Source of the DNA: Bdellovibrio sp.
GTDB taxonomy: Bacteria > Bdellovibrionota > Bdellovibrionia > Bdellovibrionales > Bdellovibrionaceae
Direction: 5' to 3'
Length of the DNA stretch: 64,000 nt
NCBI GenBank assembly: GCA_036676395.1
Contig: JAKFCY010000002.1
Span: forward strand, 1-64,000
This document shows, piece after piece, positions 31,511 through 46,935 of this stretch. The translations under genes were made by a program, and so were the position numbers. How positions within the stretch are numbered: position 1 is the first letter of the stretch; the number at the start of each line of letters is the position of its first letter. The notes under the pieces are model-generated. The model did no database searches and was not told the DNA's origin. It was given only the letters and a program-made list of their open reading frames with translations.

Positions 31511-32470
31511 ATGTTGAAAAACATCACCAGCGTTTTTCTGATCTTGTTATCGAGTTCTCTAGTTTACGGATGGGGATCTAAAGGTCATCAAATCGTCGCT
31601 TATGTGGGAGCTAATCTTACAACAGATGGCCAGGCTTTTTGGCAGGCAAATCTTGAACCACTTAGAAAATTAACAACTGTTCCTGATCGTGTATGGAAGG
31701 CTCCGGCGACCAAAGCTGGCGAAGCCAATACACATTGGTTTCAAGTCGATGCTTATTACCAGCCTGCCGATTACAATCAAATTATTCGTTTTCCAAGCAG
31801 TTATTCTGATGCCATCACTAAATATGGTGCAAGCATGATTGAACTTAATGGCGTAGCGCCGTGGCGTATTCGTCAGTTATACCAATTAGCTTTTTACAGT
31901 TTTTTGCAAGGTGATATGAAAAGTGCTTTAGAGTATGTCGGAGTCATGACCCATTATATTGGTGATCTATCACAACCTTTACATGTCACTGAAAATTATG
32001 ACGGCCAACAAAGCGGCAACAAAGGAATTCATTCTTACTTTGAAACCACAGTTATTAAAGACGAAATAAAAGTGCGCGTGGATGTTGAAAAAAAGGCACA
32101 ACGTCTACTGGCTGATGCCAGTTTTTTAAGTCAATTTAATGGCAATCTGATGGATGCGATTTTATTAGAAGTCGAAAGATCAGTTTCTTTTCGTGATCAA
32201 GTTCTGCAAAACGATGATAAGTACGGTCGCAGTAAAAATGGCGCAAGTATTCAATTAGAATTAGCTAAAGATCGCATGGCCGATGCGGCGGCAACGACAG
32301 CGATGATTTTAAATCAGTTATGGCGCGATACCGGTCTTGTGGCCCAGGCCACACCGATGACGATTCAAGATCCAAAATGGGTGAAGCCGGATTTTAATAA
32401 TTTACCCGAAGAGCGCATGACACCAATTCATCAGAGATTTTTATCTGATGAATTGGATTGTTCACTTTAA
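31511..32470 (+). CDS. S1/P1 nuclease / Zn-dependent phospholipase C fold protein, secreted
   Basis: Mature N-terminus WGSKGH, PD, HW, HYIGDLSQPLH, IHSYFE. Confidence 0.85.
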   Translation: MLKNITSVFLILLSSSLVYGWGSKGHQIVAYVGANLTTDGQAFWQANLEPLRKLTTVPDRVWKAPATKAGEANTHWFQVDAYYQPADYNQIIRFPSSYSDAITKYGASMIELNGVAPWRIRQLYQLAFYSFLQGDMKSALEYVGVMTHYIGDLSQPLHVTENYDGQQSGNKGIHSYFETTVIKDEIKVRVDVEKKAQRLLADASFLSQFNGNLMDAILLEVERSVSFRDQVLQNDDKYGRSKNGASIQLELAKDRMADAAATTAMILNQLWRDTGLVAQATPMTIQDPKWVKPDFNNLPEERMTPIHQRFLSDELDCSL

Positions 32471-34038
32471 TTCGCAGGCTGAATCGTCGGCCCGATTTCA
32501 CCTTCGGCGTGTTTTAGGCCGTCGTGTGAATGGGTAAAATGCCCTGAATACCAGAAGACTAAATTCTGCTCTGCTAAGATTTCTCCTCCTACAAAACTAT
32601 TCAGCGCAGCGCGAGTTGAAGTGCGAATGCGGTTATCATCAATTTCATTAGACTTATAACGAAGTAACCAAGCATCAGCGACACCGTAATAGTCGGCTTG
32701 GCTGTCATGATCACCCGGAACAATATCATAAGCATCATTTTCTGCATTAGTGATGCGCCAGAATTGATTGTTCAGATTTTTTTTAAACATCACTTCTTGA
32801 TTCACCGGTCTGAAAATTTCACCATCTGACACTTGCGCCGAATTGGGGATTCCGCCGATATCAAAATCAAAACGCCAATAGACATGATGGTGATGGGTGT
32901 AACAGACACAAGAGTTTCTGACTGCTGAAAATTGAAATACCGGCTTAATTTCGCCATTATTATAAAGTTCAAATTTACTGGCGTAGCGGTACCAGCCTGC
33001 CGAGATCTCTGTGACTAAAGTTACTTTTTCTTCGGTTTGGTAAATCGCGACGCCGCGAAAGTTACCGCGGTCATTGCCGGTATCAAAAATAGTGGTTGGC
33101 GGCTGATGGGTAATGCGAATTCCGGGAGCTTGATCACTGCCGAAAGCCGTAAAATAATTCTCAGCATAAGCCCAATCACGGTAAGGGCCACACATATTCC
33201 CCGAGTACTGCACATTTAAAATTGGAGTATGCGCACGAGTTAAAATTAATTTTCCTTTATAATAAACATTTTTGATTTCTAAACCTGAACCTTTGCTTCC
33301 TGACGAAGCCGACGGGCGAACCACGACGAAATTCCATAAAGGGCCCTCATCATTTGAAATATTAATTTCAGCAGAGCCCGCGCGGCCTTTACCTGTTACC
33401 GACTGACCGGCATTTGCTAAACCACAAACTGCTTCAGTAGCTAGCGAAGTCGGCGGAGCTTTTTCAGGAAAGCGCACCACAGTTAATGTGCTTAGGTTCA
33501 CACCGACAATTTCATGAATCGTAGAATCTGTTTTTGAAGCGATACCAACCCCAATTACCCGCGGCCCACCAAAACCACGCAGCATTTCGACGGTAGGCAC
33601 TGTGCTAGGCATGGGCTCATAAGTAAATAACTCTCTGCTGATTAAACCATTTGAGAATTCTGAATCCTGCAGTAATAAATTAACAGCTTCTTCGAATTCT
33701 TCAGGCGTAGCGGCCACGTCTTCAATGGTGGGTTGTATTTTGGGAGCAATTGTAAAATCAATGGGGCCAGTTAAGCGCAACATTGTTAAATCAGTGTAAT
33801 TAAAGATACACACATCATAATCAAGCCCTGATGCTAAGGCCCGTTCGCTGAGTTCAGATGTAATTAGTCGATAATCTTTTTGATCGAGTATTTTTATGAC
33901 GTCAGGATGAGCTAAAAGTTTTTCAACGACTTTTGAGCGGTCTTCATCGGTTGGTCCGATTTGCCTCGCAGTTATTTTTGTCGTGTCAGCATGAGAAAAA
34001 AATCCACAAAACAAAGCAGCAAAAAAATATTTAAACAT
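32467..34038 (-). CDS. Secreted copper-amine-oxidase-like protein
   Basis: Signal peptide; ISAGWYRY, HHHHVYWRFDFDIGG and NLVFWYSGHFTH resemble CAO catalytic-domain motifs. Confidence 0.6.
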   Translation of the reverse strand: MFKYFFAALFCGFFSHADTTKITARQIGPTDEDRSKVVEKLLAHPDVIKILDQKDYRLITSELSERALASGLDYDVCIFNYTDLTMLRLTGPIDFTIAPKIQPTIEDVAATPEEFEEAVNLLLQDSEFSNGLISRELFTYEPMPSTVPTVEMLRGFGGPRVIGVGIASKTDSTIHEIVGVNLSTLTVVRFPEKAPPTSLATEAVCGLANAGQSVTGKGRAGSAEINISNDEGPLWNFVVVRPSASSGSKGSGLEIKNVYYKGKLILTRAHTPILNVQYSGNMCGPYRDWAYAENYFTAFGSDQAPGIRITHQPPTTIFDTGNDRGNFRGVAIYQTEEKVTLVTEISAGWYRYASKFELYNNGEIKPVFQFSAVRNSCVCYTHHHHVYWRFDFDIGGIPNSAQVSDGEIFRPVNQEVMFKKNLNNQFWRITNAENDAYDIVPGDHDSQADYYGVADAWLLRYKSNEIDDNRIRTSTRAALNSFVGGEILAEQNLVFWYSGHFTHSHDGLKHAEGEIGPTIQPAN

Positions 34039-34074
34039 GAATTATCCTTTGTGAGTTTGAAACGAACTAAAAAA

Positions 34075-34090
34075 AGCAAAGCCAGTGCCA
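34075..34090 (-). promoter_or_regulatory. Candidate sigma54 promoter of CAO-like gene
   Basis: Minus strand TGGCACTGGCTTTGCT, near-consensus TGGCAC-N5-TTGC. Confidence 0.7.
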
Positions 34091-34098
34091 CTGATACG

Positions 34099-35976
34099 TT
34101 AGTGGTCTAAAGGATATTCAGCAGGAGGGTTGGTCAAACGTGCATGCCCATGTTTTTTCCAGAGATCCATCAGGGCGTGTTCATTTAAGGTTTCTGAAAC
34201 TTGTAAGATTTTAACCGCTTCAATAATAAAGGTTTTATTTCGCGTTAAAGTCTCAGTGGCGCGCGAGAAACAATGATCTAGAATGGCACGCACTTCTTGG
34301 TCTACATCTGAAGCGGTGCGATCACTTAAAAGTTTTCCGCCAGCTTCATAAGGGTTTTGTAAATAAGGTGAACGTTTATTTTCTAAAGTGACCATGCCAA
34401 TTTTTTCACTCATCCCAAATTGAGTAACCATAGCACGTGCTAAATCAGTAGCTTTGGCTAAATCATCACTGGCGCCAGTAGATATTTTTTCGCAAAAAAT
34501 AGCTTCAGAACATCGGCCCCCTAAAAGAACTGCGATTTTATCAAATAGCTCGTCTTCATCTAACACATAACGATCTTCGGTAGGGCGCTGAATGGTGTAA
34601 CCTAAAGCGCCCATGCCACGGGGAATAACGCTGACTTTGTGCACTTTATCTGTGGTGCTCAATGCTAATGCTACAGTCGCGTGACCCATTTCATGATAGG
34701 CAATGCGCCGTTTTTCTTTTTCGTTCATGACTTTGCCTTTTTTTTCTAATCCGGCAATCAAACGTTCTATGGCTTGGGTGAAATCATCTTCAACGACGAA
34801 GTCAGCATTTCTTCTGGTCGCAACGATAGCGGCTTCATTTACTAAATTAGCTAAATCTGCTCCTGAAAATCCAGAAGTGAGTGAAGCTATATGATTTAAA
34901 TCAATATTTGGATCAAGAGTGATACGTTTGACATGCACTTTCAAAATTTGTAAACGCCCGACCTGATCAGGCGCACTTAATAAAATCTGGCGATCAAAAC
35001 GACCGGCGCGCAGCAATGCAGGATCTAAAATTTCAGGGCGATTTGTGGCAGCAATCATAATCACACCTTCAGAACTATCAAAGCCATCCATCTCGGCTAA
35101 GAGCTGATTCAGTGTTTGTTCTTTTTCGTCGTTACCCCCGCCGCCGATCACGCCAAAAGCGCGCGATTTTCCTAAGGCATCAATTTCATCAATGAATAAT
35201 AAACAGGGGGCTTGGGCGCGGGCTTGTTCAAATAAATCCCGTACCCGGGCAGCACCAAGGCCAACAAACATTTCGACAAATTCTGAACCGTTAATAGAAA
35301 AAAAAGTGACTTTAGCTTCACCTGCAACGGCGCGGGCTAATAAAGTTTTTCCAGTTCCTGGCGGGCCAACTAATAAAACCCCTTTGGGGGCACGGCCGCC
35401 CAAGCGACTGTAGCGTGATGGATCTTGTAAGAAATTAACGATTTCAGCTAATTCATCTTTGGCTTCATCAACGCCGGCCACATCAGAAAAAGTAGTCTTG
35501 ACCCCTTTTTCCATATAAATTTTTGCGCGTGATTTGGTTAAAGATAAAATACCACTGGCTCCGCGGCCCATTCCGCGGGCAGCAATACTAAATAAAAAAT
35601 AAATGAATAAAATGGGAATCAGCCACGCAAACGCGATTCGCCAAAATGGATCTTTGAATTCACTGCGAAAGGTTACATTATTATCATGCAGTCGCTGCAC
35701 TAGGTTTTCATCTGGCGCTAAATTGGTTGTAAAAGTTTTTGCATTATTCGGATCGGCATTTTTAATTTCACCGCGCACCGAGGATTCGGTGATGACGATA
35801 TTGTTAATTTCATTTTTATCTAAGAGCAGCAGAAATTCGCTGTAGGGGATAGTTTCTGCGCGTGAGCGGAAGAGATAACTATTAAAAACAATGATGGCCA
35901 GTAAAACCATGAACATTACGCCAAAATTCATTTTGTTATCGACTAATTTGTTGGGTTTTGGTTGGTCGTCTTGCAT
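34099..35976 (-). CDS. ftsH: ATP-dependent zinc metalloprotease FtsH
   Basis: 2 [34 protein letters not shown]. Confidence 0.95.
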
Positions 35977-46919: not shown

Positions 46920-46935
46920 AGCAAAGCTAGTGCCG
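46920..46935 (-). promoter_or_regulatory. Candidate sigma54 promoter of OmpA-family gene
   Basis: Minus strand CGGCACTAGCTTTGCT. Confidence 0.65.

Follow-up and report, generated by a model that had tools for sequence, protein, structure and literature searches.

Does a protein that presents the residues of a copper amine oxidase (CAO) in their usual order, with unfamiliar neighbors around the tyrosine from which CAOs make their cofactor, still belong among these enzymes, and what would it catalyze? This question was raised by a gene in a 64,000-nucleotide stretch of DNA from Bdellovibrio sp. (contig JAKFCY010000002.1, positions 1 to 64,000), hereafter called the window. A single 523-amino-acid open reading frame (ORF) on the reverse strand (32467..34038) encodes TEISAGWYRY, HHHHVYWRFDFDIGG, and NLVFWYSGHFTH in this order; this motif order, which had been reported in the original prediction made from the sequence of the window, was confirmed by the ORF listing and by re-translation. 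As modeled and aligned here, the family to which this protein belongs, named the WYRY family after its motif, is a new variant inside the CAO superfamily and not a member of the classical family (PF01179; EC 1.4.3.21/22), because it fails the Pfam cutoff, departs from the N-Y-D/E consensus, and lacks arm I.

Fold and active-site columns

When the 523-residue protein was searched on its own, no NCBIfam family was matched and only a chance match (E = 1.6) was obtained in the PDB. A profile built from 20 family sequences (alignment A1) was then searched against the PDB and detected 16 sequences at an E value of ≤1, all of which were amine oxidases, with the Arthrobacter globiformis enzyme AGAO as the best match (E = 3.7e-5). 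An AlphaFold2 model built on A1 had a mean predicted local distance difference test (pLDDT) score of 80.2 and a predicted template modeling (pTM) score of 0.80. Foldseek analysis of this model returned 146 matches at an E value of ≤0.001; the best 49 of the 146 were all CAOs, and the top match was 1W4N (E = 7.1e-18, probability 1.00). In VIA-align comparisons, the best 50 entries were all members of the CAO family, and superposition of model residues 25-523 on AGAO residues 10-615 gave a Z score of 24.6 and a root mean square deviation of 6.2 Å over 412 residues with 18% identity.

Profile-to-profile alignment was performed with hhalign. The probability was 86% against Escherichia coli TynA alone. 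A profile of 123 family rows aligned with one of 7 CAOs at 99.65% (E = 4e-24) in global mode and 98.7% in local mode, and alignment with 14 CAOs gave 99.4% (E = 3e-21), with query residues 2-523 placed on TynA residues 85-742. The 123 rows derived from 266 proteins, of which 208 had a length of 480 to 620 residues, and comprised every fourth entry of the first list, all entries from the representative search, and the query. The canonical CAOs were drawn from genome scans; a TynA search listed only enterobacterial and Pseudomonas enzymes of 79 to 100% identity (120 rows). The Pfam families of other quinone enzymes (lysyl oxidase and LodA/GoxA) gave no match at an E value of ≤1. These results indicated that the resemblance to CAOs is far beyond chance and that, in the model and the alignments, the whole D2-D3-D4 architecture of CAOs is kept together with their beta-sandwich catalytic domain. 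A fold unlike that of CAOs had been named at the outset as the result that would overturn the prediction, and the fold obtained was CAO-like.

Residues were mapped by hhalign to TynA, in precursor numbering, and by hidden Markov model (HMM) alignment to AGAO; the clustering of the active-site residues rests on this positional homology. The coordinates of the motifs were checked by re-translation, and the features of the protein were as follows.

32467..34038, reverse strand: coding sequence of a divergent CAO-like protein with domains D2-D3-D4 (ORF listing, AlphaFold2 model, structure and profile alignments)
33988..34038, reverse strand: signal-like N-terminus, residues 1-17, MFKYFFAALFCGFFSHA (sequence reading)
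33205..33207, reverse strand: Y278, aligned with the strictly conserved CAO active-site Tyr (hhalign, column confidence ~0.7)
33160..33162, reverse strand: E293, a near-invariant acid (hhalign, confidence ~0.5)
32983..32994, reverse strand: W349-Y350-R351-Y352, with Y350 in the column of the topaquinone (TPQ) precursor (HMM alignment to AGAO, hhalign to TynA)
32860..32895, reverse strand: His block HHHHVYWRFDFD, H382-H-H384-H385-VYW-R389-F-D391-F-D393 (re-translation, hhalign to TynA)
32530..32553, reverse strand: WYSGHFTH, W496-Y-S-G-H500-F-T-H503, with H503 aligned with the third copper His (alignments to AGAO and TynA)

Y350 fell in the column of the tyrosine that is converted to TPQ (TynA Y496; hhalign confidence 9), while W349 occupied the Asn column, R351 the Asp/Glu column, and Y352 that of the next Tyr, so that NYDY of AGAO lay under WYRY. 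The precursor consensus T/S-X-X-N-Y-D/E was not matched by S-A-G-W-Y-R, and N-Y-D/E was present in none of the 123 relatives. H382 and H384 aligned with TynA H554 and H556 of the H-x-H motif, without gaps against H-Q-H-IYNF-R-L-D-L-D and with the same R389-x-D391-x-D393 spacing. H503 aligned with the third copper His, TynA H719 (confidence 9), in a segment where VVWHTFGLTH of AGAO and VVWMTTGTTH of TynA were also aligned. In these alignments, all three conserved copper-binding His positions are occupied, and the earlier statement that the copper site and the tyrosine are retained with altered flanking residues (W-Y-R-Y in place of N-Y-D/E) was borne out on both counts.

Outside these motifs, Y278 aligned with TynA Y399, which we take to be the counterpart of Tyr305 in HPAO-1. 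According to the accessible part of a study of CAO active sites, this strictly conserved Tyr hydrogen-bonds O4 of TPQ (PMC3382800). Immediately ahead of the TPQ strand, the alignment with CAOs contained a gap of 19 residues. The arm I residues L447 and Y448 of hVAP-1 lie 23 to 24 residues ahead of TPQ471, as given in the part of PMC7144023 that describes them; because the gap falls at this position, the arm I hairpin appears to have been removed. The spacing was also shorter between Y350 and H382 (32 residues, versus 58 in TynA) and between H384 and H503 (119 residues, versus 163 in TynA). Three features had not been noticed in the original prediction: the missing arm I, the near-invariant Glu adjacent to the column of the catalytic base, and the paired loss of copper ligands in some branches, which is described below.

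The protein had been described as shorter than known CAOs and exported, which agrees with a length of 523 residues, compared to 757 for TynA and 638 for AGAO, and with a signal-like N-terminus. The segment MFKYFFAALFCGFFSHA, followed by D, has K3, a hydrophobic core of 11 residues, and S-H-A ahead of the likely cleavage site, and reads as a Sec signal. A lipoprotein signal was considered and rejected, as A-L-F before C11 does not form a lipobox.

Distribution and conservation of the WYRY family

A database search at an E value of ≤0.001 identified 566 relatives, mostly unnamed or annotated as "hypothetical." A second search, of proteins clustered at 50% identity, yielded 697 clusters, including 244 with an E value of ≤1e-30. 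Species-representative genomes contained at least 596 stretches encoding a relative. Carriers among the matches listed belonged to the Bdellovibrionota, Actinomycetota (Solirubrobacteraceae and Rubrobacter), Acidobacteriota (Blastocatellia), Bacillota, Bacteroidota, and Armatimonadota, with one metagenome-assembled genome of the Thermoproteota. Cultured carriers (Pseudobdellovibrio sp. HCB154, Flavobacterium enshiense DK69, Peribacillus kribbensis DSM 17871, and Lederbergia and Psychrobacillus species) make the family directly testable.

Conservation was examined in the 123 rows. The WYRY motif was retained in 121 rows and R351 and Y352 in all 123, with H384, R389, and Y278 present in 122 rows each and E293 in 120. 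H382 and H503 were less strictly kept (113 and 112 rows, respectively), and the three His residues occurred together in 111. Several conserved residues were specific to the family and lacked a TynA counterpart, namely H385 (109/123; Ile in TynA), H500 (108/123; Gly in TynA), R287, D288, and the four residues C205, C283, C377, and C379, which were all present in 113 rows. In alignment A3, a subset of 111 rows, E293, R351, Y352, H384, and R389 were invariant; 12 rows that were truncated or matched only in part, among them the three without E293, had been excluded from this subset, and the 123-row counts are preferred. No invariant Lys was detected in the family alignments. Judged from these alignments, the family is under strong purifying selection.

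Among 15 longer relatives, three reached the cutoff of Pfam family PF01179 (36.3, 32.9, and 27.1 bits), and longer relatives were fused to P-domain, fn3, BACON, DUF11, or type IX secretion system (T9SS) tail modules. Inspection of 16 short matches detected two (P0252, 359 residues; P0255, 445 residues) that consisted of the catalytic domain only, with a signal-like N-terminus of their own. A hydrophobic N-terminal stretch was present in 68 of the 123 rows and absent from 55; in many actinobacterial rows, only a few residues precede the first strand. Export is therefore not a rule of the family, while the predicted export of the Bdellovibrio protein holds. The four Cys residues were retained in 68/68 rows with a signal-like N-terminus and in 45/55 rows without one.

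The proposal of a candidate new cuproenzyme family stood in part. A large uncharacterized family does exist, but "new" overstated the case: the family forms a deep branch of the CAO superfamily, some of its members pass PF01179, and public labels already read "copper amine oxidase family protein," a protein atlas having placed the 523-residue query among clusters with this label or that of "hypothetical protein." No paper on the WYRY family was found in the literature outside subscription journals, and a 2025 CAO phylogeny covering plants and animals makes no mention of such a group in its accessible part (PMC12058724). Overall, this appears to be a large bacterial family, apparently unstudied, that forms a deep and distinct branch of the superfamily.

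The relationship to canonical CAOs was examined at the genome level. The genome that contains the window has one copy of the family, and a PF01179 scan detected nothing at an E value of ≤0.001 and hence no canonical CAO. Canonical CAOs (242 to 512 bits) were present beside a family member (21 to 30 bits) in three of five other carrier genomes. In 61 related genomes, the family was found in four, including this one: three of 36 others of the genus and none of 24 from other families of the order. The WYRY-family gene is a patchy accessory gene. The scans also detected PF01179 matches of 130 to 144 bits in frames of 481 to 932 residues (G119:C1:6755179-6756300, G089:C19:12835-13959, and G104:C5:71858-72925), which fall between canonical CAOs (>350 bits) and the WYRY family (20 to 36 bits) and may represent a third CAO-like class.

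Promoter and gene neighborhood

The original prediction had noted a near-consensus sigma-54 promoter ahead of the gene. The consensus used as the search pattern was TGGCAC-N5-TTGCW, with GG at -24 and GC at -12. The element TGGCACtggctTTGCT, 36 nucleotides (nt) upstream of the ORF, was not just near this consensus but an exact match, and two features precede the start codon.

34045..34050, reverse strand: ribosome-binding site AAAGGA, 6 nt before the ATG (sequence; invariant in a 6-sequence alignment)
34075..34090, reverse strand: sigma-54 type element TGGCAC-N5-TTGCT, -24/-12 (exact consensus match)

This was the sole exact match within the window. With one mismatch allowed, four matches were obtained compared to 3.04 expected, and only the exact match therefore carries weight. 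Across the genome (3.40 Mb), eight exact sites were detected, versus one for a reversed control pattern. The other seven were on the coding strand, directly 5' of ORFs of 187 to 618 residues that start ≤94 nt away; three of their products have no Pfam match, and the others are a TPR protein, a PAS-domain response regulator, a DUF5666-like protein, and a hemerythrin. These seven loci (L103-L109) constitute a putative small sigma-54 regulon, in which no common functional theme and no link to nitrogen assimilation were found.

Both the sigma-54 element and the ribosome-binding site were invariant in the window and in 5/5 Bdellovibrio/Pseudobdellovibrio comparison loci, whose proteins are 72 to 93% identical, while the surrounding bases varied. 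The genome encodes rpoN (216 bits) and contains 12 strong matches to Sigma54_activat, none of them within the window. Examination of the upstream region revealed neither a sigma-70-like site on the strand of the gene nor a terminator-like site between the gene and ftsH, whose stop codon (34099-34101) lies upstream. Judged from the sequence and its conservation, the CAO-like gene has a putative sigma-54-dependent promoter. Of the 72 family loci whose start could be called, those five alone had an exact site, and one more had a one-mismatch site; because exact sites are confined to 5/72 loci, sigma-54 control would be a trait of the Bdellovibrio-type lineage and not of the family.

A second sigma-54-like element, CGGCACtagctTTGCT, with one mismatch, was observed at 46920-46935 on the reverse strand, some 60 nt ahead of an ATG (~46860) that is preceded by AAAGGAG. 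The product of this gene is a DUF937 and OmpA-domain protein, and its listed start (TTG 47200) is probably too far upstream.

Neighboring genes were compared at 81 family loci. No neighbor family was common to more than 11 loci, and the common ones reflected lineage synteny or were housekeeping genes; in the second-largest neighbor cluster (11 loci), most members were antisense ORFs from genomes with a high GC content. A LodB/GoxB-like flavoprotein was not among the conserved neighbor families at these loci, and no catabolic genes adjoin the CAO-like gene of the window. Convergent with the latter is an S1/P1-nuclease-like or zinc phospholipase C-like exported gene (31511-32470, forward strand), whose 3' end extends 4 bp into it and which is retained at all six Bdellovibrio-type loci. 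At one locus only, in Flavobacterium enshiense DK69 (L042:7872-11447), a galactose-oxidase/glyoxal-oxidase-like gene of 1,191 residues (GO-like_E_set, 65.8 bits) lies directly downstream of the family member; galactose oxidase belongs to another class of copper oxidases with a tyrosine-derived cofactor.

Cofactor, reaction, and comparison with known enzymes

The reading that we favor, to which we would give roughly even chances, is that the protein, an exported single-chain sister of CAOs, oxidizes amines by means of copper and a quinone that it forms by self-processing. This reading is the best supported because the copper columns, the Tyr, Y278, and a nearby acid are retained, the family is under purifying selection, and no helper gene is present. 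Once exported through the Sec system and cleaved near A17, the protein would bind Cu(II), and copper and O2 would convert Y350 in place to a quinone, either TPQ or a close variant. No helper protein is expected to take part, since no conserved neighbor gene was found. A primary amine would form a Schiff base with the quinone and be oxidized, with E293 probably abstracting the proton, and reoxidation of the cofactor by O2 would release aldehyde, ammonia, and H2O2. In canonical CAOs, arm I is contributed by the other subunit and forms a wall of the substrate channel. Its loss probably leaves the active site more accessible and may mean that the enzyme does not form the usual dimer; bulky or polymer-bound amines would fit such a site. 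The signal-like N-terminus, together with the fusion of relatives to P-domain, fn3, BACON, and T9SS modules, suggests an extracellular role. Transcription would start from the sigma-54 promoter and hence need an enhancer-binding activator.

Several observations weigh against this self-processing oxidase. The Pfam match to PF01179 (Cu_amine_oxid; residues 373-426) reached 15.9 bits (E = 0.0061), below the gathering cutoff of 27, and the model loops 210-215, 245-250, 284-290, and 468-474 are conserved yet of low confidence. The column of the catalytic Asp (TynA D413) is occupied by A292, with E293 one column on at an alignment confidence of ~0.5; in the E. coli amine oxidase (ECAO), only Glu can substitute for the base Asp, at the cost of a 6.4e4-fold reduction in kcat, as described in the accessible part of PMC3382800. 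The same part of that paper describes yeast HPAO-1, in which an N404A mutation reduced TPQ to 5 to 10% and E406Q made its formation tenfold slower, and the positions of N404 and E406 are Trp and Arg in the CAO-like protein. Furthermore, Arg was present at position 382 in 8 of the 123 rows, all eight of which also lacked H503 (R, K, Q, E, or F), and these rows retained WYRY, Y278, E293, and H384. The conserved core can thus persist without the copper site and may be independent of it. In a midpoint-rooted FastTree phylogeny, the H382R rows formed five separate pure clades; support was 0.85 and 1.0 for the two with more than one leaf, and the count of five was not robustly supported. As the two ligands were lost as a pair, positions 382 and 503 would act together, as in a shared metal site.

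These points favor the main alternative, which had been suggested in the original prediction and which we regard as doubtful: a copper enzyme built on the CAO scaffold that uses another protein-derived cofactor or catalyzes another reaction. In this case, Y350 might form a cross-link with W349 or with one of the four conserved Cys residues, or might serve as a radical or ligand, and the substrate need not be a primary amine. The stricter retention of WYRY (121/123) and of R351 and Y352 (123/123) than of H382 (113/123) and H503 (112/123) is consistent with this possibility, as are the family-specific H385 and H500, the four Cys residues, and R287 and D288. Moreover, both residues that tune TPQ formation in CAOs, as set out in the accessible part of PMC3382800, are changed. 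The family also coexists with canonical CAOs in 3/5 genomes and is therefore not their replacement. However, no positive evidence favors any particular alternative, two features linked to TPQ chemistry (Y278 and an acid close to the base column) are kept, and a 2025 review of protein-derived cofactors names, in its accessible part, TPQ alone for the CAO fold (PMC11951088). We tentatively propose that WYRY, together with Y278, E293, H384, and the family His and Cys residues, could form a catalytic center unlike that of TPQ/copper enzymes, with a new Tyr-derived and possibly cross-linked cofactor or with chemistry free of the copper site. The latter is suggested by the repeated replacement of H382 by Arg, accompanied by that of H503 by Arg, Lys, Gln, Glu, or Phe, while the rest was kept.

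An ordinary copper/TPQ primary-amine oxidase like TynA or AGAO that had merely drifted in sequence would share the fold and the copper and Tyr columns, and would account for the relatives that pass the Pfam cutoff. This explanation is improbable. WYRY is present in 121/123 rows across many phyla, so that the differences are fixed and are not drift, and canonical CAOs (242 to 512 bits) share genomes with family members (21 to 30 bits). Arm I is deleted, the catalytic Asp column contains Ala, and there is no amine-catabolic neighbor like feaB/feaR beside tynA. Although several branches have lost two copper ligands, a noncatalytic binding or structural protein or pseudoenzyme that keeps the CAO fold only is very improbable, as this protein and 111/123 rows keep three His residues with the Tyr, Y278, and E293, and the near-invariance of dozens of polar residues in different phyla is the pattern of an active site.

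CAOs are the textbook case of a self-made cofactor, and N-Y-D/E, the catalytic Asp, and the arm-clasped dimer have been treated as universal. The WYRY family keeps the copper and Tyr columns and appears to change all three of these features under strong selection, in at least 596 species genomes from many phyla. It could reveal how much of the classical active site is needed for TPQ formation, or a new cofactor or reaction on the CAO fold.

The closest known counterpart is AGAO (PDB 1AVK and 1W4N, among others), the copper/TPQ phenylethylamine oxidase of Arthrobacter globiformis. The whole-chain D2-D3-D4 fold is the same, the TPQ Tyr, H-x-H, and C-terminal His fall in the same columns, and R-x-D-x-D follows H-x-H in both. 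Identity is 17 to 18%, however, with W-Y-R-Y in place of N-Y-D-Y, and the Bdellovibrio protein is about 115 residues shorter, mostly in D4. AGAO is a homodimer. TynA (ECAO), a periplasmic primary-amine oxidase, is exported, as the Bdellovibrio protein is predicted to be. Unlike TynA, the latter has no D1 domain, has an Ala aligned with the catalytic Asp and a Glu directly after it, and carries the 19-residue deletion before the TPQ strand; E. coli tynA adjoins feaB/feaR, whereas the Bdellovibrio gene has no catabolic neighbors. D391, D393, and N492 (Asp in 96/123 relatives) align with Asp residues of TynA that presumably form the peripheral calcium site of ECAO.

Lysyl oxidase, with lysine tyrosylquinone (LTQ), and LodA/GoxA, with cysteine tryptophylquinone (CTQ), have other folds and share only the idea of a cross-linked Tyr- or Trp-derived quinone made in place. 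LodA/GoxA need the adjacent flavoprotein LodB/GoxB for their cofactor, whereas the WYRY family has no such conserved neighbor. The lysyl oxidase of Pichia pastoris, PPLO (1N9E, 1W7C, and 1RKY), is by contrast a canonical TPQ enzyme with the CAO fold (Z scores of 22.9 to 23.4), and it acts on peptidyl lysine. PPLO is thus a precedent for the use of protein-bound amines on the CAO fold, which fits the more open site that is predicted for the WYRY family.

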